Shown here: piece by piece, positions 691 through 24,998 of the stretch
Layout of the letters: the number at the start of each line of letters is the position of its first letter
How positions within the stretch are numbered: the stretch's first letter is position 1
Virus record (IMG/VR): IMGVR_UViG_2778261591_000021
Strand: one strand, 5' to 3'
Length of the DNA: 30,329 bases
From: a virus
Lineage: Duplodnaviria; Heunggongvirae; Uroviricota; Caudoviricetes
Program-made: the position numbers and the translations under genes
Notes under the pieces: model-generated
What the model saw: the letters and a program-made list of their open reading frames with translations, nothing else
The model's database searches: none
What the model was told of the DNA's origin: nothing

Positions 691-2298
691 TCAGTCCTCA
701 ATTAATTGCAGACGCTCAGTCATAGTTCGTTTGCCAAATGTTCTCGTCAACTCAATTTCTGCTGCCGCTTCACGGATATGACGTTGCAGCACGTAATTCA
801 CATCACTTTCAAGATAATCCCTGATAAGACTATCAGAAACATTTAATGTTCTTTCTTTCGTACTACCTGCGGCTTTTACAGAAAATACGCTGACAAAATC
901 CTGTGGAACCTTAGCACCAGTAATTTTATTAATTACGATATCCGCTGCAATTTCAGCATCCTCAGGATCCAGTGTTTTATTTCCTCTCGACCACCAGTCA
1001 ACCAAAATACGTCGAAATTTATCGCGTTCACTGATTATTTTTCCAACTTTATATATGCGTGGGAAATAGCTTGCCTGGCCTAATGCTTTCAGTTCTTCAT
1101 CTGGCGGCAATAAACCAAGCTTTTGCATTTCAACTTTCACCCGATTTAATACAGTTCGCATCGCCTGCGCCGTTTCCTGAACAACAGGATTAGCATGCAC
1201 ATCACCGCTTCGCATAGCATTCCCAACCTGCTGACGAAATGAATCAAAACTCATGTCACCACCATCAGCTTTATACTTTGCGTATGCCTGTTTATTTCCG
1301 ACAACAACAGCAGCTTCTTCACGCTGCCATCCACGTGTACGGGTTTCTACAGCTACCGGTGTTTCAATCCCCCTTTCATTTCCTTTAAGGGTGAAATTAT
1401 TTTCGGCTAACTCCAGCGCTGTTTTTCGCACCGTCTTGGACGGAGACTCCATTAACCTTGTCAAAGGAGTAAGATAGCTCCCTGCTTTCCATGCAGCCTT
1501 TCCAACCCACCCACCGGAAACAGGGGTTAAATCATCCAGAGCCGCTGTATCAATTTTCATAGCACCAACACTACCACCATCGGAAAGCGAAGCGGCAGCC
1601 CTGTCAGTCGCTGATGTAATGCTCATATTATCAAGAGCATCAGCAACCTCACGTGTGGCTGCAGCCCGGACGGATGGCGAAAGCGCAACACCAGCACTGG
1701 CAAACACGCCGCTCATCATCGCACCCGCTGCAACGTGAGCGGCACTTTCACCCCATGAGCGTGTTATTTGCTGATTATTCAGTACAACCTCGCTTAATGC
1801 TGTACCGGCAGCACCAATCGCAATCTGTGAGCCAATACGCGCCAGTGCCCCTCCTTGAGCACCGGGAATAAACATTGACGCAACAGTAACCGGATCCATT
1901 CCCGCAGCAATACTGGCAAGGGTTCCAACTACGCCAGCATCAGACAATAAACGTCTGTCTTCATTTTCATCATCTATCTGCTGCTTAATCCACGCCGTTT
2001 CCTCTGGCGATCGGGAATCTGCAAATTTCGCCCCCCAGTATTCATAACCGTGCAACTCATTTTTATCAGCATATGGGTTATAACCCTCGACCGGTTCAAA
2101 CTGTCTGGCTGGGCGGAAAAAACCAGACAGAATATTGTTCTGTCGCATTGCAGCCCCCCATACGGAAGGCTCAGGTGGCAATGGCTCAGGATTAGCCCCT
2201 TCCGGAAGGGCAACATCAAACCCAGTTTGTTCCGGCAAAACGTTACCTGACGGGATCAGTCCGTTATTAAGATCTTCAGCTTGTGCATAAACTGGCAT
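691..2298 (-). CDS. virion protein, 535 aa (internal virion/ejection protein or tail-associated)
   Basis: Last gene of the translationally coupled structural operon; its start overlaps the stop of the upstream 905-aa gene. Ala/Gly-rich. Function is assigned from position only. Confidence 0.4.
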   Translation of the reverse strand: MPVYAQAEDLNNGLIPSGNVLPEQTGFDVALPEGANPEPLPPEPSVWGAAMRQNNILSGFFRPARQFEPVEGYNPYADKNELHGYEYWGAKFADSRSPEETAWIKQQIDDENEDRRLLSDAGVVGTLASIAAGMDPVTVASMFIPGAQGGALARIGSQIAIGAAGTALSEVVLNNQQITRSWGESAAHVAAGAMMSGVFASAGVALSPSVRAAATREVADALDNMSITSATDRAAASLSDGGSVGAMKIDTAALDDLTPVSGGWVGKAAWKAGSYLTPLTRLMESPSKTVRKTALELAENNFTLKGNERGIETPVAVETRTRGWQREEAAVVVGNKQAYAKYKADGGDMSFDSFRQQVGNAMRSGDVHANPVVQETAQAMRTVLNRVKVEMQKLGLLPPDEELKALGQASYFPRIYKVGKIISERDKFRRILVDWWSRGNKTLDPEDAEIAADIVINKITGAKVPQDFVSVFSVKAAGSTKERTLNVSDSLIRDYLESDVNYVLQRHIREAAAEIELTRTFGKRTMTERLQLIED

Positions 2299-5015
2299 TA
2301 TTTAGATCCCCACGAAAAGTAATCTTTAAATTTGTCCATACGTTCGTTATGCAGGCGCTGATACTGCTCATCCAGAGCGCGATGCTTGTCTTTGAAGTTT
2401 CGTATAGCCTGTCCACGCATAATTTCTTCCTGCTCGTACTGCTCCCGTTCCTGCTGCATTTTCTTATAGGGTTCCCAATCTTCTAGTGATGGTTCCCAAC
2501 GCATAGGACGCCCATGTTTGTTATAAAACGGCTGGACCCGATCGATGCCATTTTCATCCTTAGTTCTTACCATAATGGCGTAATCACCATTACGGGGTGT
2601 TAACACGTCAGGGGTTATGAATAATTCTCCATTAATACGACTCTCAGGGGTTTTTGTCTCAACTACAGGAGCATTACCTGACGTGATCCCAAGCAACGTC
2701 GGGCTGGTTGTTATAATCTCTTTGCGCTCACCGTACATCAGCCGTTCTTTTTCAGCTTTCCACTGCGCCGCCTGCCAGCCTGACGGCCCATATTGATAAA
2801 GCGCCTCCGGTGCATATTTCATAAACTGCGCTTCTCCGTTAACCTCGCTGATACTCCAGGTGCGGGCTATCTGCTGGTTGGTCATTTGCTTCGCTACGTC
2901 AGCGTTACCACCAGCAACGCGGTAGTTAATGTCATACAGCGTCTGATAGTCATTACGGAATCTAGCTGCTTCCGGCGTCTGGTCATCCGCAGACGGATCC
3001 CAACGGAACCACTGCGCCATATTGCTGACAGCAGAATTCATCGCCTTGCTGCGATCATTTTTGTACTCTTTTGAACTCTGCGTTGATGCCAATTGAGCTT
3101 TAAGAGCATCGGTCTGGTTGTACGTAAGGTTCTGCGCCTGCTCGATAGCCGCATCAGCAGACATGCCAGAATCAGTTAGTTGCTTAACAGTCAGATAAAA
3201 ACCCTGCATATCCTTCGGCATATTTCCAATAGATGCATTGTCTGTTTCATATAACCGACTAAACAGTTCCGCCGCATTTTTAACCACTTCCTGATTGCTG
3301 GATCGGGATACTGCTGAAAGCTGCGTGATGATCTGCGAAGGCATTATGCCAGTCTGAGCCACAAGCCGAACAACCCCATCATGAGTGGAGGCATCATTAA
3401 TACGAAAGTTCTGCGCCATTTCTGTGTAATCAGCAGCTTTCTGCATTGACTTGTTGCTTGGGTCTAATTTTTCACCTATTGTCAGCGCCTCATTGAATCT
3501 GCGTGAATCCCGTTGCGCCTGAATTGCTTCATTTGATCTCTGAAGCAATGCAGACAATTTTCCGTAAGCATCGAGTTTTAACGCATAGTGAGGATCGTTA
3601 ACCTCAGGCTTCACTTTCTGCATTTCTTCTTGCTGCTGAGAAGGAGGCAAATACTGAATTGCCTGGAATATTCTCGCGTTATCAATCGCTATATCCAGTT
3701 GATTGATTATTTTATCTGCGTTTTTTCCATACCCCCTGATGATGGTCTCCTGAGCCGGTATATAATCTGGAACCTCACCGTTATATAGCTGGGCCATGGT
3801 GTTATTAATAGCTGGCTCAAGCTGTTCTAATATTAACTTCCTTTGCTTTTCTATCTGACTATTAGCAAGGTTATCTATTTGATAAATAGTCAGCGGATCC
3901 ATTCCAGTTTTATTTTTTCTATATCGGGAAAGCCACCCTTGTGTTTCTGATGGAAGATTTCGGATAAATTCTTCTTCTGATATTTCACCTTTACGTGGAT
4001 CACCGACTTTGGCGATCAGTTTATCCACGTTACCCATCCCCCAGTTATATGCTGCTCCGGTCAATATTTCGGAACCGTACTTACCATACAGTTGATTTAC
4101 ATAGTCACTGGCGAGCATTTCATGCTGTTGTTCGTCCGTAGGGTTGTATTCAACGCCACGCTTGGCCGCCAGTTCTTTTCCTGTGCCCGGCATTAACTGG
4201 TATTTCCCCTGGGCTCTCTCTCCAGAAGATGTTATCGGTCCCTCAAGAAGACTACCATCAGGATTAAAATGTCGATCACCTGATTCAACAAGGCGTATGG
4301 CACGCATGTCCATGCCTCCAGAATCATTTTTCTGAAACAGACCATTTAGCCATCCTTCTGGATTGGCAGCGGCATAATTCTTCGCCCGCATTTCTGTGGC
4401 ACTGCGATCATCACTTTCTATTTCTTCCAGAATGCGTTCTTGTGACCATCCCCTGGCAGCTCCATATCTGGCAATGGCTACCATTCTGGAATTTCTGGCT
4501 AAAGTGGCAGTTTGCGGGTCATTCCAGGCATCCGCTTCATTTTGTATCCATAATTTTCTCGTTGCCTGATATTGCTCATCTTCATAGGCATTTGTCTGCC
4601 CTATCTCATGTCTGAGAACTCCAGTACTGAACTGAATTTTCTGTGTTCTGGCTTGTTGCAAAAACATATTTCTTGCAGCTTCATCAGTCAATGAAGCAGC
4701 TATTTCTTCCACATCCTGATCAAATCCAGATATGTACTCTTGCCCCTTACCAATCGCATTTTTGCCTTGTTGTGCATAAAAACCGGTTTGAGGGTTATAA
4801 AGACGTTCATTGCTGCGCTGATTAAGCTGAAGGATGGCATCCTGAGACAATGCAACATTCGCTTTCTGCCTGGCTTCACCATATGCCACCGCATACTGAT
4901 CTGCGACATTCGCCAGCACCTGACCTGCTTGAGGAACATCGAAGGTCTGAAAACCACCGGTTTGCACACCACGACTTTGCACCTGACGTCCGGATACTGT
5001 TGGTACGACTGGCAT
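2298..5015 (-). CDS. internal virion protein with lytic transglycosylase (SLT) domain, 905 aa
   Basis: Contains SLT-like motifs (ES...GKYQLMPGTGKE...AAYNWGMGNV). Start re-assigned to the ATG at 5015, which has a GGAGG Shine-Dalgarno 7 nt upstream and overlaps the upstream stop as TAATG; the track ORF extends to 5090. Confidence 0.7.
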   Translation of the reverse strand: MPVVPTVSGRQVQSRGVQTGGFQTFDVPQAGQVLANVADQYAVAYGEARQKANVALSQDAILQLNQRSNERLYNPQTGFYAQQGKNAIGKGQEYISGFDQDVEEIAASLTDEAARNMFLQQARTQKIQFSTGVLRHEIGQTNAYEDEQYQATRKLWIQNEADAWNDPQTATLARNSRMVAIARYGAARGWSQERILEEIESDDRSATEMRAKNYAAANPEGWLNGLFQKNDSGGMDMRAIRLVESGDRHFNPDGSLLEGPITSSGERAQGKYQLMPGTGKELAAKRGVEYNPTDEQQHEMLASDYVNQLYGKYGSEILTGAAYNWGMGNVDKLIAKVGDPRKGEISEEEFIRNLPSETQGWLSRYRKNKTGMDPLTIYQIDNLANSQIEKQRKLILEQLEPAINNTMAQLYNGEVPDYIPAQETIIRGYGKNADKIINQLDIAIDNARIFQAIQYLPPSQQQEEMQKVKPEVNDPHYALKLDAYGKLSALLQRSNEAIQAQRDSRRFNEALTIGEKLDPSNKSMQKAADYTEMAQNFRINDASTHDGVVRLVAQTGIMPSQIITQLSAVSRSSNQEVVKNAAELFSRLYETDNASIGNMPKDMQGFYLTVKQLTDSGMSADAAIEQAQNLTYNQTDALKAQLASTQSSKEYKNDRSKAMNSAVSNMAQWFRWDPSADDQTPEAARFRNDYQTLYDINYRVAGGNADVAKQMTNQQIARTWSISEVNGEAQFMKYAPEALYQYGPSGWQAAQWKAEKERLMYGERKEIITTSPTLLGITSGNAPVVETKTPESRINGELFITPDVLTPRNGDYAIMVRTKDENGIDRVQPFYNKHGRPMRWEPSLEDWEPYKKMQQEREQYEQEEIMRGQAIRNFKDKHRALDEQYQRLHNERMDKFKDYFSWGSK

Positions 5016-5563
5016 TATAATCCTCCGGGTAATCTGGTTCCTGCTGCTGCCCCGATTGGCGCAGGGGTGCTTTGAGTAAACGGACTCCACGTCCCACCAA
5101 ACATCTGGTATGCACCGTATGCTTTTAGTGGTGCCGTTAACAAAGTGCTGGTCATCGATGATTTAGCAGCCGACTGAGCAGCAGCCCCCTGTGCCTGAGC
5201 ATTCATTCCCTGAACCTGATACCCATATGCCTCACGCTGAGCATTATTCACTGTCGTTAACGCATCAAGAGCGCCGAACTGAGCATTATCCGCAAAAACG
5301 TCAAGAGCTGTTCCGCTACTTAATTCCGCACCGGTAGCCCCCATAGTGGCCGCCGCAGTGCCTGAGCGTTGACGCATTTCACGACGACGCTGATCCGCTT
5401 CAATATTCCCACGATTGATTGAATCCTGTGCCTGAGCTTCAGCAATTTCAGCATTCCGATCAGCTATGGCTGACTGGTATTTTGCCTGCTTGCTCTGGCT
5501 GTACATTGACGCGGCTGTGGATGCCACTGTGACGGCAACCAAAGCGATGGCTGGGTTACACAT
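5015..5563 (-). CDS. internal virion protein, 182 aa, hydrophobic N-terminus
   Basis: N-terminal hydrophobic segment (AIALVAVTVASTAA) followed by an Ala/Gln-rich region. Size and position match a T7 gp14-like core protein. Confidence 0.4.
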   Translation of the reverse strand: MCNPAIALVAVTVASTAASMYSQSKQAKYQSAIADRNAEIAEAQAQDSINRGNIEADQRRREMRQRSGTAAATMGATGAELSSGTALDVFADNAQFGALDALTTVNNAQREAYGYQVQGMNAQAQGAAAQSAAKSSMTSTLLTAPLKAYGAYQMFGGTWSPFTQSTPAPIGAAAGTRLPGGL

Positions 5564-12014: not shown

Positions 12015-12307
12015 TCCTGTTCACTGGCCTCTTTGGCCATCTTCAAATACTGTTCAGGGCAATGCGCCATAACGCGCTGAAACAGTTCCAGCGCCAGATT
12101 GCGTTGCCCCTCATTAAATGCCATTGCCATAGCGTCCATCGGTGAGATAGCGGAAAACACACGGCCTTTCTCCAGCACCGACCAGACAACGCGACGCCCC
12201 TGTTCACTGCTCATGACAAAGCGAATGTCATCAATTTCACGCTGCGCCATGTCACGTTGCTTACGGGCGTTTTCTTCTTTCAGTTGATCGTCTTCGTAAT
12301 CTGTCAT
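12011..12307 (-). CDS. hypothetical protein, 98 aa
   Basis: Coupled ORF between portal and scaffold genes. Confidence 0.4.
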   Translation of the reverse strand: MTDYEDDQLKEENARKQRDMAQREIDDIRFVMSSEQGRRVVWSVLEKGRVFSAISPMDAMAMAFNEGQRNLALELFQRVMAHCPEQYLKMAKEASEQE

Positions 12308-13983
12308 TGTGATTGCCCACCCTGACCACTAACTGCATTCGCCATAGCTGACAAAACACTCGGATCCGAAGTTTTAGCTTCGCTTAGTGTCTTGGCACCC
12401 TGTGCCGCCGCCATCCCCATCGCCATCATTTGTTGCTGCTGTTGCTGCTGTGCCCGTTGCTGGCGAGCCTGCTCAACCTGTTCCTGCGGAACAATGACGG
12501 TTGGAGACACTCCGGACATATCAGCGAATGCATCGATCGCCTGATCAACGTTGAGTTTGTCGAGAGCTTCTGGTTTCGCTTGCGCAAGTTGACCAATGAA
12601 GTTAACCGTGGACGCCAGACTGGACAGGCCGATAGACTTCTGCGCCTGAGCCATGACGGAAATGTATTCGACCTTCAGGGGCATACCTTCCATCGCGTCA
12701 GGCGGTGGCGGCAGCATGTTTTTACGCACCATCATCGAGAAAGCGCGGTCAATGAGAGGGTTAAGACATTCGTCGTTCAGACGCTCCAGAACCGGCCCCA
12801 ACATCAGAAGCTTTTCTTCTTTCATTTCGATCACTGCTTCAACAGGCATCGAGCGGGTATTGATGTTCTGCAACATCATGAACAGATCGACAAAGTAGGC
12901 GCTGTTAATGATTTGGCGGGTGTCCTGAATGTCTGCTACCAGATCTGCTGTACTGGGGTTAACCAGATAAGCAGGCCTGAAACCATCCTGACCAGTAATC
13001 TGATCGATATACGTGATGTCGCCAGGAAGAAGAGAGGCGCGCTGATTCTTGAGGGAAGTCGGAGCAACCATCGGCGGATTGGTGGCTTTATCAATCAACT
13101 GCGACTTGCGCTTCTGGAGAAGCTGCAATGCCTTAACAGGTCCAAGCGCCAGCATACCCGGGCATGATGATCCATAAACATCTTCGCCGTTAACTTCCCA
13201 GCGCGGAGCCATAATTGGAAACTCATCGAATCCGGACTCACGCAACAACTTGTCGTTATCGCCACCAACCTCGTAATAAACCGATTTGAATGGCTTGTTC
13301 TTGCTATCCAGCTTCGATGTATCGCGGTCAATGTTCGGGTAAACCGAATGCATCACTTCAATCCACTTCTCGTAGGTGCCGCTTTCCCACATGCTTTTTA
13401 CGGATTCGCTGACGTTATTTAGTCCGAACTCCTGAACAAGCTGACGAACAGTCATAGAGAACTTGCGAAAACAGGTGTCCACACTGCCACGAGGTGAGTT
13501 AGCCAGGTAGTAACTTCCTATCGGGAATGGCATTGTACGAATGATGTCCTCGTCATCCTCCAGCACCGCCATTGCGCCAGTGCTGTATGTGCCGAGGCTT
13601 CCGTATAACTGCGGCAGCGACTGATAGAGATTCGACTTATTGAACATATCGTTCATGCGGTTCTGAACTGCCTCAAGCCACAACTTAACAGGGCCATAAT
13701 CCATCATTTCAGGATCTGGCGTAGCCAGGCGAAACCACGGACGCGCGGGGCTTGTGATGCCTGACATCATGCCGCTGGCGAGAGTGCGCGCCGCCATAGT
13801 CCCGGTCGAATCAATAATGCGTGTATTGCGCCGATCGTTACGGTTGGCCTCAGAAGTCAGAAAGCGGGAACCACGCGGGTTGATGTAATCACTCAACTCG
13901 CGCCAGTGCGGCTCGAACGACTGACGCTCGCTTTCAAGTTGTGCGAACTGTTTGTTCAATCGCTCTTTAGTTGTTTCCGCCAT
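12304..13983 (-). CDS. portal (head-tail connector) protein, 559 aa
   Basis: Size and position between terminase and scaffold; podovirus-type portal. Confidence 0.7.
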   Translation of the reverse strand: MAETTKERLNKQFAQLESERQSFEPHWRELSDYINPRGSRFLTSEANRNDRRNTRIIDSTGTMAARTLASGMMSGITSPARPWFRLATPDPEMMDYGPVKLWLEAVQNRMNDMFNKSNLYQSLPQLYGSLGTYSTGAMAVLEDDEDIIRTMPFPIGSYYLANSPRGSVDTCFRKFSMTVRQLVQEFGLNNVSESVKSMWESGTYEKWIEVMHSVYPNIDRDTSKLDSKNKPFKSVYYEVGGDNDKLLRESGFDEFPIMAPRWEVNGEDVYGSSCPGMLALGPVKALQLLQKRKSQLIDKATNPPMVAPTSLKNQRASLLPGDITYIDQITGQDGFRPAYLVNPSTADLVADIQDTRQIINSAYFVDLFMMLQNINTRSMPVEAVIEMKEEKLLMLGPVLERLNDECLNPLIDRAFSMMVRKNMLPPPPDAMEGMPLKVEYISVMAQAQKSIGLSSLASTVNFIGQLAQAKPEALDKLNVDQAIDAFADMSGVSPTVIVPQEQVEQARQQRAQQQQQQQMMAMGMAAAQGAKTLSEAKTSDPSVLSAMANAVSGQGGQSQ

Positions 13984-13997
13984 TTCAATGACTCCGG

Positions 13998-14204
13998 TTA
14001 CTGACCAAGCAGCGTTTTACCGCTGGTATTAGCGGTTGATGTGTCGCCCTGAGAACCGGTAAGCAGCGTAGAACTACGACCAGCAGCAGCGCGACGGCGA
14101 CGAGTTTCTTCGTCGCGGGCATCAACAACGGCGGCATCCTGCTCCTGTGGTGCTGCCTGAACTTCTGGTGTTGCAGGCACTGATGGTGAGCTACCCATGC
14201 ACAT
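13998..14204 (-). CDS. small hypothetical protein, 68 aa
   Basis: ATG with GGAG 10 nt upstream; first gene of the structural operon after the accessory island. Low-complexity sequence. Confidence 0.3.
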   Translation of the reverse strand: MCMGSSPSVPATPEVQAAPQEQDAAVVDARDEETRRRRAAAGRSSTLLTGSQGDTSTANTSGKTLLGQ

Positions 14205-14272: not shown

Positions 14273-14309
14273 TTGACATTTAACGCACAAATTATTACCT
14301 TTCAGGTAA
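14273..14309 (+). promoter_or_regulatory. promoter-like TTGACA followed by a TTACC-N5-GGTAA operator-like palindrome
   Basis: TTGACA at 14273-14278; TTACCTTTCAGGTAA at 14295-14309. Same layout as the early promoter at 25090-25132. Points toward the structured region and tRNA. Confidence 0.45.
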
Positions 14310-14329
14310 CCAAAGAGTTCATTCCGGTT

Positions 14330-14631
14330 ACTAACCTGACTGGCTTGTCGTTAAATTGAACAGGTGGAGTGAGCTTTTATTTTGAGCAGTACGGCGTATG
14401 GCACATGCGCCGATAGCGGTCTGGATACGTTTAAGGGGCACCCTCCCTTGCTCGGGCAAACGAACCAGGTAGCCGGAATGTGCAAGTCGAGCGGTTTTAT
14501 TCCGCGCACGGGGATTCACCATCCCGGCGATTCGGTGTGACGCCTCGGAAGAGACGAGGGTACAACGATGAGAGCATTTATGGAGCCGCGACAAAGTGTG
14601 GCGCCTTAACAGGCTAAGTGCTCTCAGCGTT
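14330..14631 (+). other. GC-rich, hairpin-dense non-coding region upstream of the tRNA (candidate structured RNA or tRNA leader)
   Basis: No convincing ORF on either strand. Multiple perfect local hairpins, for example CCTCG-gaagaga-CGAGG and CGGAAT...ATTCCG. Lies between a promoter and the tRNA. Confidence 0.25.
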
Positions 14632-14708
14632 GTGGCATTAGCTCAGTTGGACAGAGCAACCGCCTTCTAAGCGGTTGGTCGCAGGTTCGAATCCTGCATG
14701 CCACGCCA
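14632..14708 (+). tRNA. tRNA-Arg (anticodon TCT, reads AGA)
   Basis: Full cloverleaf: 7-bp acceptor stem GTGGCAT/ATGCCAC, D-arm GCTC/GAGC, anticodon stem ACCGC/GCGGT with loop CTTCTAA, T-arm GCAGG-TTCGAAT-CCTGC, discriminator G and encoded CCA. Resembles but is not identical to an enterobacterial argU-type tRNA as recalled from memory. Confidence 0.85.
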
Positions 14709-14751
14709 GAATCACGCCTAAGGACCGTGATGCCAGAAGTTCCAGGGGCTT

Positions 14752-14795
14752 GGCGGTGATGGTTTCCCTTGAAGGACTATCACCGCCCTTTTTAC
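14752..14795 (+). terminator. rho-independent terminator downstream of the tRNA
   Basis: GGCGGTGAT...ATCACCGCC stem followed by CTTTTTA. Confidence 0.55.
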
Positions 14796-14870
14796 AGCAG
14801 GACGCCATTGCGATGACTTCATGCTGTAAACCAGTACAGCCACGGAAGGCATAACTCATTGCTTCCAGTT

Positions 14871-14896
14871 CGCCCGGTTCGCCGGGCATTTTTTTG
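14871..14896 (+). terminator. rho-independent terminator
   Basis: GCCCGG-ttcg-CCGGGC stem followed by ATTTTTTT. Confidence 0.65.
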
Positions 14897-14900
14897 ATTG

Positions 14901-14929
14901 ATGACCGCAAATTACCTTAAAGGTATAAT
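14901..14929 (+). promoter_or_regulatory. promoter-like element with a perfect -10 TATAAT (14924-14929) overlapped by an operator-like palindrome
   Basis: Palindrome TTACCTTAAAGGTAT at 14912-14926; a possible -35 ATGACC lies 17 bp upstream of the -10. Sits immediately before the moron ORF. Confidence 0.4.
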
Positions 14930-14930
14930 C

Positions 14931-15749
14931 ATGAAAAACTTCAAGGTAATTAGCATGTTTGAATCGTTCAAAGAGCTGTTTTTATCTACTGCCAATACTG
15001 CCGTGAATCGAGCCAAAAACCCTGTGCTTGGTGCTTTTGTTATGTCCTGGTGCGCCTTCAACTGGAAATCAATTCTTTATCTATTTTTTAGCAAATCAAA
15101 CATAATAGATAAAATTTCATATATCTCAGATAACAGCACATGGAAAACTGTTATGTTTTATCCATGCTTATCTGTAATTGCTATCTGCTGCCTATTACCA
15201 TGGGTAAACAATATCATTAACGTATGGCAAGCAAAGCCTCTTGATAATAATGACTCAATCGAAAATCACCTGAAGGCAAGAAAAATCCAGCGTGAAACAA
15301 GACTGCAGAGGTTATTGGCTAAAAAAGATGTTACATACGACAAAGTTAAGACTGGCGCGGAAAAAGACATCCAAGAGATGAAAGAAGAGATTATTCGATC
15401 AAAGAATAGTATGGGGGAATTGACTGCCGAGTTGAAAGCTAAAGATGACGAATTGAGATCCGCCAGTGCACAGTTAGCAGCTCTAAATCATTCATTAAAA
15501 GAGATATCGGAAACTCTTGGAAGAATGAATGAGGCATATAAGACCCTCCAAAATGATTTCGACGAATACAAACTCAAATACCCTGAAAAATCTCAAATAA
15601 AAAGCCTTGCACTTGGCAACGGCCAAACAATTAGCAACGTTTTGGAGCAACACAACTTATCCGGATTAAAATCTGGTAAGCCAAACGTTTTTAATAACTT
15701 TGGTGTTCTATCTGGATTATCAGGTTTCGAGGATAAAAATAAAGACTAA
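14931..15749 (+). CDS. AT-rich accessory (moron) protein, 272 aa: two predicted TM helices plus a long coiled-coil domain; function unknown
   Basis: Opposite strand to all flanking structural genes and visibly AT-rich relative to them. ATG at 14931 has AAAGG upstream; the track ORF starts at TTG 14898. Hydrophobic segments are VLGAFVMSWCAFNWKSILYLFF and VMFYPCLSVIAICCLLPWV; heptad-like charged region from about residue 100 to 220. Confidence 0.6.
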   Translation: MKNFKVISMFESFKELFLSTANTAVNRAKNPVLGAFVMSWCAFNWKSILYLFFSKSNIIDKISYISDNSTWKTVMFYPCLSVIAICCLLPWVNNIINVWQAKPLDNNDSIENHLKARKIQRETRLQRLLAKKDVTYDKVKTGAEKDIQEMKEEIIRSKNSMGELTAELKAKDDELRSASAQLAALNHSLKEISETLGRMNEAYKTLQNDFDEYKLKYPEKSQIKSLALGNGQTISNVLEQHNLSGLKSGKPNVFNNFGVLSGLSGFEDKNKD

Positions 15750-17221
15750 GCATATGGATCGTACTCGGTAAGCGCCTTGCCTTGCTGGTTCTGCTGCCCG
15801 GGAAGTCGCAGGCGCTTTGACACCGGGAAAGCAAACGTCAGCAGTAGCGCATCGCCTTTACCAGGCGAACGCCCAAGTCGTTCTTTGATATCTTCCTTCG
15901 GTTCGATAACGATTTTACCGTCCACGCGAACTTTGTACTCTGCCGCCGACAGATCGTCCGCTGTTTCCTGGTCATCCAGCATCCCGCCCAACCTCAGCCA
16001 TGTCTTGCATGAGTTGAACATCTCCCCGCGCTTGTTAAGCATCTGCGGGTCAGTGGACGCACCGCCGAACGGAACAAGTTGCCATGTACGCCCCCAGCCA
16101 TCACCGATTGACTTCAAACCGGTTCCGTAACCGAAGTCGATGAACACCGCGTCAGCCTGATACTGGTCTTCAAAGTCAGCGATACGCTTCGCCATAATCA
16201 GATCGTCGGTAGTCTTGTTGCCAGTCCATAGCACCTTACTATGCAACCCCTGCCGCAGGTATATCACCGCGTCATCAACGCCTGAATATGCCGGGTCAAC
16301 ACCGATTATCACCGGAGCATGTGCCACCTGCGCAGCGGTTACCACCCGTTTCATTGCCTCATCAGTAAGACCGGTAGGGATAAACTGCAATTCAGATGCA
16401 TCAGGGAATATGCCGCGCACACGGATTTTAACGAAGTCGCTGTCTTCCCCGTAGTCATCAACCCATTTCTGCAACTGCTGTTTGTTAGTACCTTCCACCG
16501 TCCGGCTGTCAATCTGCGCAGTTTTCCAGCGGTGTTTGTATTTGCGGAAACATTCGCGAAAACGCCCGGTATTACGTGTAGGGTTTCCGAACGCCACCCA
16601 GATAATCTCAGTGTCTTCGTCCGTAAGCGCACCCTCAGCAACTTCCCACACCAGATCCGCAATGTTCGACGCTTCATCGAATACCACGATGATGCGTTTG
16701 CGCTCGTTGTGTAGTCCGGCGAATGCCTCAGTGTTGTGCTCAGACCAGGGGATTGCGTCAGCTCGCCACCGCTTGTCGTGCCCAGGATCATTGCTGTACA
16801 TCGCAGTAGCGGTACAGGTAAACCAGTCTTTCGTGATAGCAAGGTTCGACCACTTGATAATTTCCGGCCAGGTCTTCGTTCGTAGCTGGTTGTCGGTGTT
16901 GGCGGTCACCACGACCTTACAATCCTCGCAAGTGGACATGCCCCAGTTGATCAGCATTGAGATGAATGCGGATTTACCAATACCATGACCAGAAGCGCGT
17001 GCCAGCATAAGCGGCTGATAGCGCGTCTCTGGATTCTGCAGGTGATCACGTATCTCTCGGAACGCATCAGCCTGCCACTGACGTGGGCCGGTAGCATGTG
17101 CCAGTTCAGTCCCCTCTTCCCCCCACGGGAACGCATATAGGGCATAGCCAAGCGGATCGTGAGTGAACCCTGCAATATCCTCGATCAACTGCTCTTCAGG
17201 AGATAACGCTGTATCTGTCAC
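15746..17221 (-). CDS. terminase large subunit, 491 aa
   Basis: Walker A-like GHGIGKS, ATPase and nuclease acidic blocks (VVFDEAS, GVDPAYSG), and position after the small subunit with overlapping stop/start. Confidence 0.9.
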   Translation of the reverse strand: MTDTALSPEEQLIEDIAGFTHDPLGYALYAFPWGEEGTELAHATGPRQWQADAFREIRDHLQNPETRYQPLMLARASGHGIGKSAFISMLINWGMSTCEDCKVVVTANTDNQLRTKTWPEIIKWSNLAITKDWFTCTATAMYSNDPGHDKRWRADAIPWSEHNTEAFAGLHNERKRIIVVFDEASNIADLVWEVAEGALTDEDTEIIWVAFGNPTRNTGRFRECFRKYKHRWKTAQIDSRTVEGTNKQQLQKWVDDYGEDSDFVKIRVRGIFPDASELQFIPTGLTDEAMKRVVTAAQVAHAPVIIGVDPAYSGVDDAVIYLRQGLHSKVLWTGNKTTDDLIMAKRIADFEDQYQADAVFIDFGYGTGLKSIGDGWGRTWQLVPFGGASTDPQMLNKRGEMFNSCKTWLRLGGMLDDQETADDLSAAEYKVRVDGKIVIEPKEDIKERLGRSPGKGDALLLTFAFPVSKRLRLPGQQNQQGKALTEYDPYA

Positions 17222-20972: not shown

Positions 20973-21006
20973 TAAAAAGATCGTCGATTCATGCCGATCT
21001 ATTTTT
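20973..21006. terminator. hairpin AGATCG...CGATCT flanked by T-runs on both strands (bidirectional terminator-like)
   Basis: 6-bp stem with 11-nt loop overlapping the HNH gene stop; TTTTTA follows on the minus strand and ATTTTTCAT on the plus strand. Confidence 0.35.
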
Positions 21007-21597
21007 CATCAGTGATTCATAAAACTTTTGCCACTTATGCCGACCGAAATTAGCCTTCGAGTTACAGCTCGAACAAAGGCAAATAAGGTTCTCCTGACGA
21101 CAGTCTTGCTTGTCGTAATTGATGTGATGAGTTGTTAGCCTTTTGTCTGTTCCATCACAACCTGGGTTCTGACAAGTAAAACCATCTCGCTCAATAACCC
21201 TCTTGCTCGTTTCTCGGAAATCCCACGGATACGGCAATCTCGATAATCCACCAGACCAGTTTGGATTTCCTTCCCCCTTCATCAGAGAAGAACGCATTAT
21301 GTTGGAACACTGTTTCGAGCAGCATTTATGACGCTTCTCATGACTCAAGAAAACGGAGAACGAAGATCCGCATACGCAGCATATTTTTAATACTCGCTTT
21401 AGTTCCCGATTTACCGTCTTGCCTCGCTGTGAAATTCCTACACACTGAAGTGAGCAGAACCTTGAAGATGAGTTGGCTCGCTTAACCTGATATTGCCTGC
21501 CACATACGGAGCAAACCTTTTCGATTTTCCCACCCTTCCAATTCGGGTTTTTATCACCGGATACAATCAATCCCGCAGCATTGGGCTTCTCGCTCAT
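20989..21597 (-). CDS. HNH endonuclease with N-terminal zinc-ribbon repeats, 202 aa
   Basis: Repeated NPNWKGG/NPNWSGG motifs and CxxC pairs; C-terminal HNH core (CQNPGC...THHINYDK...NLICLCSSCNSK). Confidence 0.7.
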   Translation of the reverse strand: MSEKPNAAGLIVSGDKNPNWKGGKIEKVCSVCGRQYQVKRANSSSRFCSLQCVGISQRGKTVNRELKRVLKICCVCGSSFSVFLSHEKRHKCCSKQCSNIMRSSLMKGEGNPNWSGGLSRLPYPWDFRETSKRVIERDGFTCQNPGCDGTDKRLTTHHINYDKQDCRQENLICLCSSCNSKANFGRHKWQKFYESLMKNRSA

Positions 21598-21947
21598 AGT
21601 TCCTCAACCTCCCATCCACCACCGAGCTTTTTAGGTTTTGGATAAGCAACCTGAAAGACAAACGGATAGCTGTCTGCCGCAACCTTCATCTTGACTCTCG
21701 CATCGTCAGTAAAGACTGACTTACTTCCCTTAACGTCCACCATCACCAACTGCCCGTCAGCCAACATCACGGCAAAATCTACAGTCAGGAAGCAGTTGTC
21801 AGCTAACCGCAGCTTGAGACCATCGAATCGATACCAGGCGATTTCCCCTGCACGTTTACGCTGCTCAAGGTGCTGGCAATACGCAGATTCTGTTTTGTTC
21901 ATCTGACCTGTTTTGAGTCGACCAAGAGCCTGTATCTGTTTTCTCAT
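21594..21947 (-). CDS. DUF1064-like (PD-(D/E)xK nuclease-fold) phage protein, 117 aa
   Basis: Pattern E...Y...L...DF.V...DG...DVKG typical of a small phage nuclease-fold family. AGGGG RBS. First gene after an operator-flanked promoter. Confidence 0.45.
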   Translation of the reverse strand: MRKQIQALGRLKTGQMNKTESAYCQHLEQRKRAGEIAWYRFDGLKLRLADNCFLTVDFAVMLADGQLVMVDVKGSKSVFTDDARVKMKVAADSYPFVFQVAYPKPKKLGGGWEVEEL

Positions 21948-21950
21948 GAT

Positions 21951-22027
21951 TTACCCCTGAGGTAATTAAAAACCACATAAGACACGAAATCAATAGATTT
22001 TAGTATATTTTATTACCCGCCAGGTAA
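21951..22027 (-). promoter_or_regulatory. internal promoter (TTGATT-N17-TTTAAT on the minus strand) flanked by two TTACC-N5-GGTAA operator-like palindromes
   Basis: Sites at 21951-21965 (overlaps the start region and RBS of the DUF1064 gene) and 22013-22027 (upstream of the -35). Confidence 0.45.
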
Positions 22028-22037
22028 TCATTTAGGA

Positions 22038-22059
22038 GTAAAAAAATGCGCTATCGCGC
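22038..22059 (-). terminator. weak terminator-like element after the P-like gene
   Basis: 4-bp GC stem (GCGC-gata-GCGC) followed by ATTTTTTT on the minus strand; the stem is short. Confidence 0.3.
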
Positions 22060-22064
22060 TGGTA

Positions 22065-22865
22065 TTACTTGATAAATCCTGCCGCCTTTCCCCGCCTGTA
22101 TTCCTCCATCAGCCACTGTGCCGGTGTTATTCCACCCAGGGTGGCGGCGTTAGGCATGCACCCGAAACTTCGCCCTGGTGGATGGTAAACGTCTCTCCCT
22201 GTGTCCGGAGGTGTACTCATGGGTTCTGGCTTTGCCTGTATGCTGATCACCGGATCGGGTATCTGCTGTCCGGAAGCCACCTTTTTCGCCCAATCATCGA
22301 GCAACCTGCGCGCGTGTTTCTCAACCTCAATCTCGCTAAGCTGGCGCTGATACATTGCACGGCGGGTATCACATACGACCCAGTACATAACCGGATGTCG
22401 CCACGGGAATCTTTCTGGACCACCAGGATATAAACTTTTTTCCTTGCTGTACCGGTGAAACTCCGCCATCACATCGTCAATGGTGACGCCAAGAACCATC
22501 TTGCTGTCTTTGCACCACTTGATGAATTGCCCAGGCGACGGCCAGAACGGAGATTCACTGGCGCGGGCGTGGCGCATACCAGCAGAAACCTGTTCACGGG
22601 TTCGGATCCCACCTTCGGCAAACGCAGCAATCCACTGCTGTTTTGCAGCAACTTCCTGCTCTGGCGTCTTCAGGTTGGTTACCACTGCCGCCGGAAACAG
22701 CTGTTTCAGCTGTTTGAAAAGGGCATCAACAAGCCTCTCTGCTGACATGTTCACCACATTGTCATTGTTGACGTACTGATGCTCATAACCTGACATGCGA
22801 GAAAGGGCTTCTCCGTCATGGTTTTGTATCGCGGTAAAAACGTTGTTCACAAGAAATCCTCCCAT
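22065..22865 (-). CDS. replication protein P-like (replicative helicase loader), 266 aa
   Basis: Recalled similarity to lambda P blocks (SPGQF.xWC, YP..FPW....YW.V, RRLLDDW...G..IP.PV) and position directly after the O-like gene. The first 19 nt overlap the O-like gene. Confidence 0.7.
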   Translation of the reverse strand: MGGFLVNNVFTAIQNHDGEALSRMSGYEHQYVNNDNVVNMSAERLVDALFKQLKQLFPAAVVTNLKTPEQEVAAKQQWIAAFAEGGIRTREQVSAGMRHARASESPFWPSPGQFIKWCKDSKMVLGVTIDDVMAEFHRYSKEKSLYPGGPERFPWRHPVMYWVVCDTRRAMYQRQLSEIEVEKHARRLLDDWAKKVASGQQIPDPVISIQAKPEPMSTPPDTGRDVYHPPGRSFGCMPNAATLGGITPAQWLMEEYRRGKAAGFIK

Positions 22866-23662
22866 GCTTCAGGGCTGTTCCAGTGCGGAACGTTGTTATC
22901 AGGTAATGTTGATTGCTTCTGTCTGCTAATCTGCAGCCGCCTTGCCAGCTTCTGCTCCCACTGTGCCTGATGGTATGCCTTACCCTCAGCCATCCAGTAA
23001 ATTCTGAACTCTGCAAGTTCCTGTGCCGTTGGCAGACTGTCCAGGTAGATCCCCTGCAATGAGCTTTTCCGAAGAAAGTCATCTGATGGCTGCCATTGTT
23101 CATGCATGACAAATTTGCCTAATTGCCCTGGCCCACCAGGAGGAACAAAGTTATTCATCACGGCGTTGTTTGCGCCGGGGTCATGATGCACAGAATCCCC
23201 GTTTTTTGTCCTGCTCTCCCTCTCTTGGTTAAATGACTGGTTATATGACTGGTTCTGGATCCCGTTTTTGGGATCATTCAACATCCCGTTTTTGGGATCA
23301 TTCAACATCCCGTTTTTGGGTATATTCCCGTTTTCGGGTATATTCCCGTTTTCGGGTTCATTGCCCCCCTCCCGGTTGCCTTTAATGTTCCCGTTTTTGG
23401 TTATATTAAGAGAGAAAACCCGCACTCTTTTTGTCGCTCCCTTTCTATCTCCGGTATCTGAAATAAGCCCCATTTTCATGAGCGATATAAGCCCGGCCTG
23501 CACGGTTTTTTTATTCAGGCAAGTGTCTTTAACGAGGCGTTCTATGCTGGGGTAGCAGAGGTTATATTCATCGGCTCTGTCAGCCATCGAGAGCAGTATG
23601 AGCTTTAATGATGAGCTACCTGGATCTGTCTCCCAGGCCCAATCTGTTGCATGTCTGCTCAT
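22847..23662 (-). CDS. replication initiator O-like protein with internal iteron array, 271 aa
   Basis: N-terminal HTH-type initiator region; central PENGNI/PKNGMLND peptide repeats are encoded by the DNA iterons; position before the P-like gene. Confidence 0.65.
   Translation of the reverse strand: MSRHATDWAWETDPGSSSLKLILLSMADRADEYNLCYPSIERLVKDTCLNKKTVQAGLISLMKMGLISDTGDRKGATKRVRVFSLNITKNGNIKGNREGGNEPENGNIPENGNIPKNGMLNDPKNGMLNDPKNGIQNQSYNQSFNQERESRTKNGDSVHHDPGANNAVMNNFVPPGGPGQLGKFVMHEQWQPSDDFLRKSSLQGIYLDSLPTAQELAEFRIYWMAEGKAYHQAQWEQKLARRLQISRQKQSTLPDNNVPHWNSPEAWEDFL
23259..23407. repeat. origin-like iteron array: six copies of core CCCGTTTT(T/C)GG, including two perfect 24-bp tandem units
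   Basis: Units ATCCCGTTTTTGGGATCATTCAAC at 23259-23282 and 23283-23306, with further copies near 23309, 23327, 23345 and 23390; a direct repeat ATGACTGGTT x2 is adjacent. Confidence 0.7.
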
Positions 23663-24413: not shown

Positions 24414-24998
24414 ATGAAAAGTATCCAGGACGTCCGCAGGCAAAATCTCAACGACTTGATCGACCGTGAATTCAATGGTGTTCAGACGCGGATGGCAGAA
24501 AAACTTGGAACTCAGGCAAATCTGGTAAACCGCTGGGCTCTTGGCAAGAAGGTTATCGGCGACCAGGTTGCGCGAAAAATTGAAGCTGCCGCCAATAAAC
24601 CCCGTAACTGGCTTGATATCGATCGCTCGCTTTCTCAGGAAGGTTTTCAGCCTGTCGGCCCAAGCGACATTGGTCAGCTGGCGGCTCACAACCTGGAACG
24701 CTGGATGAGCGAAAGCCGCGACCTTTCAACGCAGGGAAAACTTCACCGCGCATCCGGCGTCGCCCAGGTGACAATCAGTCGCCTGTTAAACAATGAGGTC
24801 AGCGTTTCCATTTCCACCCTGGAGAATGTTGCATCCGCATTCGGGCGTCACGGATATGAACTACTGATTCACCCGCACGACCCTGCGACTATCAACTATG
24901 ACCGCTCACGCTACGCATTGTTACCCGAAACCGAGAAAGCAAAGATCGAAAGTTACATTGAATTTGTCATCAACCAGAACGAAAAAAGCAAACAATAA
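24414..24998 (+). CDS. repressor-like protein with two tandem XRE-type HTH domains and no LexA/S24 peptidase domain, 194 aa
   Basis: HTH 1: TRMAEKLGTQANLVNRWALGKK. HTH 2: KLHRASGVAQVTISRLLNNEVSVSISTLENVASAFG. Occupies the cI position and is followed by its own terminator. Confidence 0.6.
   Translation: MKSIQDVRRQNLNDLIDREFNGVQTRMAEKLGTQANLVNRWALGKKVIGDQVARKIEAAANKPRNWLDIDRSLSQEGFQPVGPSDIGQLAAHNLERWMSESRDLSTQGKLHRASGVAQVTISRLLNNEVSVSISTLENVASAFGRHGYELLIHPHDPATINYDRSRYALLPETEKAKIESYIEFVINQNEKSKQ

Follow-up and report, generated by a model that had tools for sequence, protein, structure and literature searches.

A phage tRNA-Arg(UCU) gene behind a conserved structured RNA in a putative repressor-controlled unit

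The DNA analyzed here (the window, 30,329 nt in full) is that of a phiV10/epsilon15-type phage (Uetakevirus). Our main finding is that its one tRNA gene probably (we put the chance at about 60%) encodes a functional tRNA-Arg(UCU) that reads AGA and forms the 3' part of a repressor-controlled, early non-coding unit lying antisense in the gap between the terminase and portal genes. As read from the sequence, the unit would comprise, in order, a promoter (TTGACA-17-TACCTT) whose −10 element lies inside an operator copy, a leader of 85 nt, a structured RNA of 244 nt, the tRNA and two intrinsic terminators. It would be silent in the lysogen and become active early, upon infection or induction. Cleavage by RNase P at G14632 is predicted to part the upstream RNA from the tRNA, which would supplement the scarce host tRNA-Arg(UCU) for phage AGA codons, probably an accessory benefit that the phage can do without. 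The conserved, mobile core of the module would be the upstream RNA, and the tRNA-Arg one of several RNA 'cargoes' placed behind it.

The tRNA-Arg(UCU) gene and its locus

ARAGORN found a single tRNA in the window, a tRNA-Arg of 77 nt with the anticodon TCT at 14632-14708 (+). The Rfam tRNA model (RF00005) matched the same interval over its entire length with 73.3 bits (gathering score 29; E value 1.9e-14), and the 3' CCA is present in the DNA, so that the complete, canonical tRNA of the original prediction stands. The anticodon UCU is located in the 7-nt loop CUUCUAA. The identity elements of E. coli ArgRS are A20, C35, U36 and the discriminator G/A73. The phage tRNA appears to possess them: C35, U36 and G73 are all found (A73 in some variants), and the D loop AGUUGGACA retains a putative A20, the position being given by our own numbering. 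Copies with at least 95% identity occur in about 500 E. coli records, and the gene is also found in phiV10, TL-2011b, typing phages 9 and 10, SPN1S-type phages and Klebsiella phages; it is already annotated in relatives of the window phage. Changes among the variants are confined to G-U wobbles or the discriminator. Between E. coli and Salmonella phages the tRNA is 96% identical and the upstream RNA 71%; this better conservation, together with the retained Arg-tRNA sequence features, indicates that the gene is selected as a tRNA. The tRNA-Arg gene is thus confirmed to be real and is ordinary for this phage family.

The gene is flanked by those of the large terminase (15746-17221, −) and the portal protein (12304-13983, −; Pfam Head-tail_con), both on the opposite strand. 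The prediction that it sits midway through the late region is therefore correct by position but not by strand. A study of tRNA-dependent lysogeny reportedly describes integration that disrupts a host tRNA gene. We set this mechanism aside as not relevant: phages of this type integrate at the 3' end of guaA (PMC9782041).

The tRNA had also been credited with its own promoter. A sigma-70 consensus scan gave no match beside the tRNA, the sole match (14901-14929) belonging to the downstream open reading frame, but a likely promoter can be read from the sequence about 330 nt upstream, at 14273-14301 (+). It consists of a −35 element TTGACA (14273-14278), a 17-nt spacer and a −10-like TACCTT (14296-14301), and was missed by the generic scan because its −10 element is weak. 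The latter is overlapped by an operator palindrome, ATTACCTTTCAGGTAA (14294-14309). TTGACA precedes the palindrome by exactly 23 nt in 22 of 30 distinct Uetakevirus loci, with a variable distance to the RNA. The sequence TACCTnnnAGGTA, allowing at most one mismatch, occurs eight times in the window (at 14296, 14913, 21952, 22014, 23960, 24345, 25057 and 25119) compared with 0.27 expected occurrences; the last group of sites flanks an open reading frame for an HTH_3 regulator (24414-24998), and operator palindromes also cover both promoters of the tRNA island. The homologous palindrome of epsilon15 (2931-2947) is annotated as a repressor site. This arrangement points to a promoter under the operator of the phage repressor, and such control would indicate early rather than late expression. 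The untranslated leader that follows (14310-14390, +) is found in the phiV10 type only; its segment 14320-14331 is complementary to the invariant motif 14469-14480 of the upstream RNA (inverted repeat I6), and the complement is not conserved in epsilon15.

Two terminator-like hairpins with T runs lie downstream of the tRNA, as the original prediction had it. The first (14752-14796, +; hairpin 14752-14787) has a 14-bp stem formed by GGCGGTGATGGTTT and AGGACTATCACCGCC and is followed by CTTTTT; a similar hairpin, GGCGGT...ACCGCYCTTTTT, occurs after the upstream RNA in Klebsiella and lambdoid members. The second (14872-14895, +; hairpin 14872-14887) has the sequence GCCCGG-TTCG-CCGGGC followed by ATTTTTTT. 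The segment between them (14797-14871, +) is retained in epsilon15 despite the loss of both the upstream RNA and the tRNA, neither of which can therefore be essential. It may be a small RNA in its own right or a 3' extension: folding of 14709-14900 gave a z score of −2.9, and an Rfam search of 14797-14871 yielded sub-threshold matches only, driven by the terminator. Homology to phiV10 stops at the second terminator. Beyond it lie a second promoter, ATGACC-17-TATAAT (14901-14929, +; the match of the sigma-70 scan), overlapped by a second operator copy (14911-14925), and a variable cargo open reading frame (14931-15749, +; 272 amino acids, GC content 0.37) whose product is hydrophobic at its N-terminus and contains a coiled coil. 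This frame has no assigned family and is unlike the genes at the same position in phiV10, SPN9TCW and BUCT554.

A conserved pseudoknotted RNA upstream of the tRNA

The 244 nt at 14391-14634 (+) constitute a conserved, pseudoknotted RNA that has no Rfam family and does not code for protein. Its helices are P1 (14392-14399 with 14405-14412, +), P2 (14420-14424 with 14465-14469, +), P4 (14511-14514 with 14522-14525, +) and P5 (14543-14547 with 14555-14559, +), a pseudoknot (14517-14520 with 14534-14537, +) and P6 (14561-14578 with 14617-14634, +), a closing helix that holds a variable insert. The invariant sequence GGUAGCCGGAAUGUGCAAG at 14468-14486 (+) is followed by a variable hairpin at about 14487-14509 (+). 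The first three bases of the tRNA can extend P6, and in all of the approximately 29 tRNA-bearing loci the tRNA starts 6-8 nt past the inner closing helix, whatever the length of the insert. We scored 48 base pairs in an alignment (A2) of 76 distinct sequences: 90.0% of the pair cells were paired, compared with 31-46% when the partners were slid, and 21 of the 48 pairs changed on both sides in a compensatory manner. At the pseudoknot pair, 52 of the sequences have C-G and the other 24 have A-U, without a single unpaired cell. A mutual-information analysis independently gave the same pairs, and near-invariant U-G and G-U pairs assign the RNA to the plus strand.

The same region is annotated in phiV10, TL-2011b and mEp460 as a small protein encoded on the minus strand, a reading that we regard as extremely improbable. 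An open reading frame does exist at 14331-14594 (−), 'hypothetical protein' coding sequences stand here in GenBank records, and 65 of 117 distinct sequences are free of stops on the minus strand across the RNA. The spacing of the conserved blocks, however, takes every residue modulo 3, and there is no excess of third-position changes (variability 0.595, 0.638 and 0.541 over the three codon positions), and on these grounds we reject the coding interpretation; moreover, a plus-strand RNA accounts for the covariation and the near-invariant G-U pairs, and cdtI, P1 and P7 carry no annotation here.

No match to Rfam 15 was obtained over 14391-14631 up to E = 10, nor over the RNA in five other members; elsewhere in the window and these five members, searches at gathering and permissive thresholds returned only tRNA, C4, isrK and a sub-threshold RprA. 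The invariant 19-mer was absent from the literature full texts searched, and literature on the phiV10 tRNA, P1 ban RNA-seq, the mEp phages and the 19-mer held nothing on the upstream RNA. Two further structural readings were rejected. A T-box-like relationship, with the loop UGGC of helix P1 able to pair with the tRNA's GCCA end and an AGA in the P5 loop, was judged weak because the UGGC loop varies (UAGC, UGGU, UGGA), the P5 loop is different in one subfamily and a tRNA is absent from most members. A hammerhead-like interpretation of CGAUGAG in P6 was ruled out, as this strand covaries as a helix.

Distribution and possible roles of the upstream RNA

The upstream RNA occurs much more widely than the tRNA: it was detected in 1840 of 5426 complete E. 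coli genomes, about a third, as against the roughly 500 records of the tRNA. Carriers include P1, P7, podoviruses and lambdoid prophages, among them Stx2-converting ones. Among 134 loci inspected for context, 63 lie after a CI-like repressor gene, 36 in the Uetakevirus gap and 12 before ban in P1-like elements. In cdtI, the cI stop (2882) is followed by a terminator, a promoter TTGACA-16-CATAAT (2921-2948) with a palindrome and, about 50 nt on, the RNA (from 3002); a terminator-like hairpin separates the RNA from the first gene. In P1-type elements a tRNA-Ile(CAU) ends about 17 nt before the RNA, and in P1 itself the RNA lacks helix P6, stands at the end of the leader rather than at its start, and runs directly into the ban ribosome-binding site with no terminators evident nearby. 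The slot behind the RNA holds tRNA-Arg, a cloverleaf-like domain or an RprA-like sRNA; only a minority of family members have a tRNA next to the RNA, before or after it. A genome-wide 17-mer scan of 596 Gb, in which about 70 chance matches are expected, gave 54 matches; 31 of them, from Bacteroidales and further non-enteric genomes, came without the flanking motifs, and the 23 real ones were all from Enterobacterales with the exception of one 1.7-kb contig binned as Bacillota. A universal terminator after the RNA was rejected, since a strict terminator scan found terminators in Uetakeviruses only; a lax scan found them at most lambdoid loci too, but is given little weight because its antisense control was also high.

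We see an even chance that 14391-14634 defines a new class of phage RNA, pseudoknotted and about 190-245 nt long, that is common to lambdoid phages, P1/P7 and epsilon15-like podoviruses and always stands in repressor-controlled early transcripts. Such an RNA would be a portable leader for untranslated RNA cargo; it might modify or protect the polymerase (RNA-only antitermination or anti-Rho activity) or, once processed, act in trans on a conserved host factor. Our best guess, drawn from position only, is a cis-acting early leader that would help RNA polymerase to complete or read through the untranslated cargo and the terminators.

A specific form of this role, for which we see a real but minority chance, is that of a put-like, processive antiterminator or anti-Rho leader that would read through both terminators into the cargo gene and, in lambdoid phages, into the early-left operon. 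HK022 put consists of two stem-loops within about 70 nt, and HK022 putL measures about 74 nt. That 63 of 134 loci have the RNA just downstream of a CI-like repressor gene speaks for such a function. The RNA of cdtI stands where lambda has nutL and where HK022 and HK639 have putL; there is no evident N-like gene downstream, and the conserved unpaired sequence would fit binding to a conserved host machine. In lambdoid members the RNA, like HK022 put and the putL-like RNA of HK639, follows the promoter after the repressor gene and precedes the early-left genes; it occurs in one copy per phage, as in HK639. The copy in the window, in contrast, occupies the podovirus gap, where read-through would send the polymerase antisense into the terminase gene. 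Unlike put, the RNA also has six helices and a pseudoknot in about 190-245 nt, three times the size of put, and occurs in podoviruses and P1 as well. No similarity in sequence or architecture was detectable: the putL-like RNA of HK639, annotated as a 126-nt feature, gave only short-word BLAST matches, nhmmer found no match in HK639 or in HK022 24-31 kb, and the motifs of the upstream RNA are absent from HK022. P1 lacks evident terminators near the RNA, and the terminator statistics, with a high-scoring antisense control, are weak.

Somewhat more doubtful is the possibility that the unit chiefly yields the upstream RNA, as a stable RNA acting in trans, with the tRNA serving mainly as an RNase P signal that would define its 3' end and the tRNA-Ile of P1 doing likewise on the 5' side. 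The fixed tRNA junction, the close approach of the P1-type tRNA-Ile(CAU), the greater abundance of the RNA and the closure of the Uetakevirus unit by a terminator, in the fashion of a small-RNA gene, are all consistent with this view. There are also precedents: the P1/P7 C4 RNA and species 1 and 2 of the T4 tRNA cluster are stable RNAs known for RNase P processing. With these, and with GOLLD and ROOL, the upstream RNA shares the character of a structured phage non-coding RNA beside tRNA genes, and, as in the stable RNAs of T4 and P1, RNase P cleavage of the neighboring tRNA would here set one end of the RNA. No Rfam family matches it, however, C4, GOLLD and ROOL included; both GOLLD and ROOL far exceed it in size, and most of its members have no adjacent tRNA, which also argues against a trans-acting product matured in this way. 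The stronger conservation of the tRNA, with its Arg-tRNA features kept, and the P1 copy, which has no P6 and abuts the ban ribosome-binding site, likewise weigh against it.

Codon usage, host argU and implications

The suggestion that the tRNA supplies rare-codon capacity received a mixed answer. AGA is used 6.44 times per 1000 codons in the window and 2.31 times in K-12 core genes, a difference of about 2.8-fold, and AGG 5.28 and 1.51 times, respectively (the host sample being one 50-kb K-12 stretch from which the waa cluster was removed); the AGA/AGG enrichment proposed as a check is thus present. Relatives without the tRNA, however, use AGA to a similar extent (Tyrion 7.5, PAT1 7.1, BUCT554 4.5 and epsilon15 4.4 per 1000, compared with two values of 6.2-6.4 in tRNA-bearing phages), so that among Uetakevirus relatives, two with the tRNA and four without, its presence is not associated with higher AGA use. 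In addition, the capsid, portal and terminase genes of the window contain almost no AGA, and the codon is avoided by the late genes that are most highly expressed. Codon supply by the tRNA is therefore plausible but not specifically supported, as tRNA-less relatives match in AGA use. Among the rare-codon tRNAs of temperate coliphages are those of the P1 ban operon and, in 933W-type phages, ileZ-argN-argO, which lie upstream of stx. The window tRNA resembles these in belonging to a temperate phage, reading a rare host codon, lying in a longer regulated transcript and having its cognate codon enriched. It differs from them in its antisense location within the packaging/head block, in being associated with an immunity operator rather than a late antiterminator, and in a presence that does not follow AGA content among relatives.

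E. coli argU, which adjoins fimZ and the DLP12 integrase gene, has in common with the phage gene the anticodon, anticodon loop, D stem, T arm, length of 77 nt, G73 and encoded CCA. Unlike argU, the latter is phage-borne, stands behind a 244-nt structured leader and lies under a phage operator. The predicted divergence from argU at several stem positions was borne out by direct comparison, which revealed 13 differences in 77 positions: three pairs of the acceptor stem, two of the anticodon stem, one position in the D loop and two in the variable loop. The stem differences are paired swaps that preserve the stems. The alignment to chromosomal argU spans only nt 7-77 of the tRNA, with 85.9% identity, so the gene is neither identical to this host gene nor a copy of it.

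The original prediction held further that this divergence might confer resistance to a tRNA-targeting nuclease. We consider it unlikely that the tRNA is a replacement resisting a host anticodon nuclease (for example a colicin D-type, retron or toxin tRNase) that would deplete host tRNA-Arg(UCU) during infection, and we know of no defence nuclease specific for this tRNA. Phage tRNAs do rescue infection from tRNA-cleaving defences (PMC11555353, PMC10264068), and retron Eco2 cleaves host tRNA-Arg among others (PMC12916289). The two divergent anticodon-stem pairs, the divergent acceptor stem and an early, operator-controlled expression would suit such a counter-defence. The published escape hypothesis, however, depends on mutations in the anticodon loop (PMC10264068); by this measure only stem pairs differ from the host isoacceptor, and nuclease escape has no sequence support because the 7-nt loop is identical to that of argU. 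Many close relatives, moreover, do not carry this tRNA. That the phage captured an inert piece of host DNA in the recent past, the flanking conservation of the gene reflecting only recent common descent, is hardly credible: the D and T arms match argU, but the 13 differences with their stem-preserving swaps contradict this origin, and the gene has been kept in E. coli, Salmonella and Klebsiella phages that diverge by about 30% in the adjacent RNA.

Taken alone, the tRNA adds little, being another rare-codon tRNA of a temperate phage that is annotated in relatives, although the comparison of relatives with and without it provides a clean negative data point on codon compensation by phage tRNAs. 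It is the context that matters: the tRNA would be under immunity control and is joined to a conserved structured RNA outside the databases, which genome annotators have repeatedly mislabelled as a 'hypothetical protein'. Should this RNA prove to be an RNA-only device for transcription elongation, it would represent a second, unrelated solution to the problem solved by HK022 put; should it act in trans as an early RNA, a new player would be added to host takeover or counter-defence. Either role could easily be tested in genetically tractable phages.

The tRNA-Arg gene and its possible benefits

The window contains a single tRNA gene, a tRNA-Arg with anticodon TCT, which ARAGORN places on the plus strand at 14632-14708, exactly where the original prediction had put it. 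The Rfam tRNA model matches this interval over its full length with 73.3 bits (gathering score 29), and the 3' CCA is encoded in the DNA. A match to the tRNA was obtained in 5426 of 5426 complete E. coli genomes; in most of them the best match is the chromosomal argU, aligned only over nt 7-77 at 85.9% identity. Copies at least 95% identical occur in about 500 E. coli records, and presumably represent prophages of the phiV10/epsilon15 type. Direct comparison with argU of K-12 W3110 revealed 13 differences over the 77 positions. Five stem pairs, three in the acceptor stem and two in the anticodon stem, are altered in both partners, and the remaining substitutions affect a single base of the D loop and two of the variable loop. 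This bears out the predicted stem divergence from the host gene. No substitution falls in the anticodon loop, the D stem or the T arm, and phage variants at other loci carry changes that create G-U wobble pairs or affect the discriminator only. Judged from its sequence, the tRNA is diverged and under purifying selection rather than recently captured from the host. It belongs to the tRNA-Arg(UCU) family and, considered by itself, is already known and similar to other rare-codon tRNAs of temperate coliphages; a single tRNA is also mentioned for phage ZX5 (PMC9782041). The predicted tRNA is thus correct, though ordinary.

Two benefits had been proposed for the gene. For the first, supply of rare-codon capacity, codons were counted with one simple ORF caller for all genomes, the host sample being one 50-kb K-12 stretch with the waa cluster removed. 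AGA occurs 6.44 times per 1000 codons in the window versus 2.31 in the K-12 stretch, and AGG 5.28 versus 1.51 times. AGA codons cluster in the tail genes (691-5090), in a number of early genes (20989-23662) and in the cargo ORF that follows the tRNA unit; in the capsid, portal and terminase genes AGA is nearly absent. However, the tRNA-bearing relative SPN9TCW (6.15 AGA per 1000 codons) is matched by the tRNA-less relatives Tyrion (7.47), PAT1 (7.08), BUCT554 (4.51) and epsilon15 (4.36). Because AGA is equally common in relatives that lack the tRNA, its enrichment is a family trait independent of the tRNA. The supply idea is weakly supported: the tRNA can assist AGA decoding yet is dispensable, and supplementing it would be an accessory benefit. 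The second proposal, escape from an anticodon nuclease, is unsupported. The published hypothesis on tRNase-escaping phage tRNAs rests on anticodon-loop mutations (PMC10264068), and no anticodon-loop change relative to argU was found. The two altered anticodon-stem pairs leave room for nuclease resistance, for which the sequence offers no argument.

Genomic setting and putative repressor control

The region 14300-14895 is 99.5% identical to Escherichia phages phiV10 and TL-2011b and to O157 typing phages 9 and 10, all of them Uetakevirus (epsilon15-like podoviruses), and several of these records already annotate the tRNA. The gap that contains the gene is bounded on one side by the large terminase gene (15746-17221) and on the other by a small gene (13998-14204) beside the portal gene (12304-13983; Pfam Head-tail_con); all three are on the minus strand, opposite to the tRNA. 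Homology to phiV10 ends at 14895. There follows the cargo ORF on the plus strand (14931-15749; 272 aa, GC 0.37), whose product has a hydrophobic N-terminus and a coiled coil and matches no Pfam or PADLOC family. The ORF takes the place of the DUF2829 or gp49-like genes of relatives and could be a moron or serve in exclusion.

The tRNA had been predicted to possess its own promoter and terminators. Two terminator-like hairpins with T runs indeed lie 3' of it on the plus strand (14752-14787 and 14872-14887). No consensus promoter was found adjoining the tRNA; a candidate is located ~330 nt upstream, with TTGACA (14273), a 17-nt spacer and TACCTT, this -10-like element falling within the palindrome ATTACCTTTCAGGTAA. 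The 13-bp palindrome TACCTnnnAGGTA (at most one mismatch) is present in eight copies in the window versus 0.27 expected. One covers the tRNA-unit promoter (14296), another overlaps the TATAAT of the cargo ORF's own promoter (14913), and six (21952, 22014, 23960, 24345, 25057 and 25119, extending to 25131) surround a Cro/C1-type regulator gene (24414-24998) recognized by its HTH_3 domain. In the curated epsilon15 record, the homologous palindrome in the same gap is labelled as a 'repressor' binding site, with further copies beside the repressor gene. All 30 distinct Uetakevirus loci contain the palindrome, preceded by TTGACA at exactly 23 nt in 22 of 30; the distance from these elements to the conserved RNA upstream of the tRNA varies from ~20 to 215 nt. 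The palindrome is probably the immunity operator, and the unit would, as read from sequence, be repressed in the lysogen and expressed early, the upstream RNA and tRNA being co-transcribed under repressor control and then freed from one another by RNase P cleavage at 14631/14632.

Two further observations concern this unit. The ~100 nt between the terminators (14797-14895, plus strand) fold as two hairpins and a terminator, are conserved in epsilon15 despite deletion of RNA and tRNA there, and may constitute a separate small RNA. The leader segment CATTCCGGTTAC (14320-14331) and the invariant motif GTAGCCGGAATG (14469-14480) are complementary over 11 of 12 nt, and alternative pairing between them could mask the motif; the leader stretch is not conserved in epsilon15.

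A conserved pseudoknotted RNA upstream of the tRNA

Using the flanks as BLAST query, we found that ~14391-14638 is 83% identical to unannotated DNA of the lambdoid phages cdtI, mEp460 and 2H10, and partially matches P1 and P7. A first alignment comprised 14 phages; 76 distinct sequences were then collected via the invariant 19-mer GGTAGCCGGAATGTGCAAG (alignment A2). Both alignments support an RNA (14391-14634, plus strand) that starts with hairpin P1 and helix P2, which encloses a variable arm. The 19-mer is followed by a variable hairpin and then by hairpin P4. A pseudoknot forms between the P4 loop, (C/A)ACC, and GGU(G/U) 14 nt downstream. Next come hairpin P5 (loop GAAGAGA) and the long helix P6, which closes the structure and surrounds a variable-length insert. 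The same pairs were recovered by a mutual-information scan without prior assumptions. In A2, 90.0% of cells are paired versus 31-46% with partners slid, both sides change in 21 of 48 pairs, and the covariation score is 0.234 versus 0.04-0.08 in the slid controls. The covarying pseudoknot pair is C-G in 52 sequences and A-U in 24, with no unpaired cell. Near-invariant U-G and G-U pairs identify the plus strand as the folded one. Comparative evidence thus shows that a conserved pseudoknotted plus-strand RNA directly upstream of tRNA-Arg(UCU) is real. In some members the P6 insert contains T-arm-like GGTTCGAWTCC hairpins (L109 and L007 among the phage records compared; A2 columns ~240-340), which suggests tRNA-derived or tRNA-like insertions.

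A protein-coding reading of the region was rejected, since conserved-block spacings take every value modulo 3 and no excess of third-position variability was found. The 'hypothetical protein' CDSs overlying the RNA in phiV10 (DQ126339, 2666-3261, covering the tRNA too), TL-2011b and mEp460 (mEp460_037; L004 2943-3311) are therefore probably spurious. Rfam 15 yielded no match over the upstream RNA even at E = 10, for the window and five other members, and the 19-mer is absent from the searchable literature.

The RNA is present in 1840 of 5426 complete E. coli genomes, annotated in none, and in more than 120 IMG/VR contigs. Species-representative genomes gave 23 real matches, all in Enterobacterales except one 1.7-kb contig binned as Bacillota; 31 further 17-mer matches lacked the flanking motifs, fitted chance expectation in number and were discarded. 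Of the 134 loci, 63 have a CI-like repressor gene immediately upstream in the same orientation, 36 are located in the Uetakevirus gap and 12 in P1-like contexts. P1 and P7 retain only the core P1-P5, within the C1-controlled ban operon, beginning ~17 nt after tRNA-Ile(CAU) and continuing into the ban ribosome-binding site. In epsilon15 (L196 2675-2724) the RNA is reduced to its initial ~50 nt, comprising P1 and the beginning of P2; the deletion that eliminated the remainder, together with the tRNA, joins this remnant to the region after terminator 1. The curated epsilon15 record labels an RNase III site near the remnant (2720-2819). L032 carries two tandem copies behind a cI-like gene, at oriented coordinates 0-180 and 800-960, separated by a minus-strand membrane-protein gene; the second copy is decayed and has mutations in the 19-mer and P4.

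Exchangeable cargo and possible roles of the RNA

In all ~29 loci that carry it, tRNA-Arg(UCU) begins 6-8 nt downstream of the inner closing helix, however long the insert, and the outer P6 pairs (UAC 14561-14563 with GUG 14632-14634) use its first three bases. Members without the tRNA retain CGUUGUGG, and other elements occupy the slot. In the cdtI-type lambdoid slot (L002 3229-3352), a ~125-nt four-way, cloverleaf-like domain closed by GUUGUGGU/ACCACAAC precedes a terminator; ARAGORN calls no tRNA in this domain, and its folding z-score is not significant. Stenotrophomonas phage BUCT708 (L009 2131-2250) carries an RprA-like sRNA directly behind the upstream RNA (50.2 bits, below the gathering score of 70; local E 1.6e-5) that has AAUUGCUGUGUGUAGUCUU and a terminator in common with RprA, an arrangement repeated in L047, L061, L102, L104 and L125. 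A similar terminator, GGCGGT...ACCGCYCTTTTT, ends the module in E. coli, Klebsiella and lambdoid members. The retained RNA, changing slot contents and common terminator indicate that the upstream RNA is the constant part of a mobile module, of which tRNA-Arg is one cargo.

In cdtI, the cI stop is followed by a terminator, a TTGACA-16-CATAAT promoter with a palindrome, ~50 nt and the upstream RNA, which places the RNA where lambda has nutL and HK639 its annotated putL-like RNA. Elsewhere in this phage (L002 777-965), C4 antisense RNA (68.4 bits) and isrK (60 bits) upstream of an antirepressor gene form an ordinary immI-type module unrelated to the tRNA unit. Position is what argues for the reading we tentatively favour (probability roughly 0.3-0.45), in which the upstream RNA would be a cis-acting early leader aiding polymerase through the untranslated cargo and the terminators. 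Against it stands the RNA's lack of similarity to the put RNAs of HK639 (putL-like) and HK022; the RNA annotated in HK639 (work of King et al.) is unrelated. A processed, trans-acting RNA comes next, as a doubtful but serious candidate. A riboswitch or other role accounts for the remainder.

Within Rfam 15 and the searchable literature, King et al. excepted, no description was found of the composite, an immunity-controlled unit in which a widespread, unannotated structured RNA is fused to a tRNA. Its interest lies in the neighbourhood of the tRNA rather than in the tRNA itself, and would be greater still if the upstream RNA represents a new functional class.
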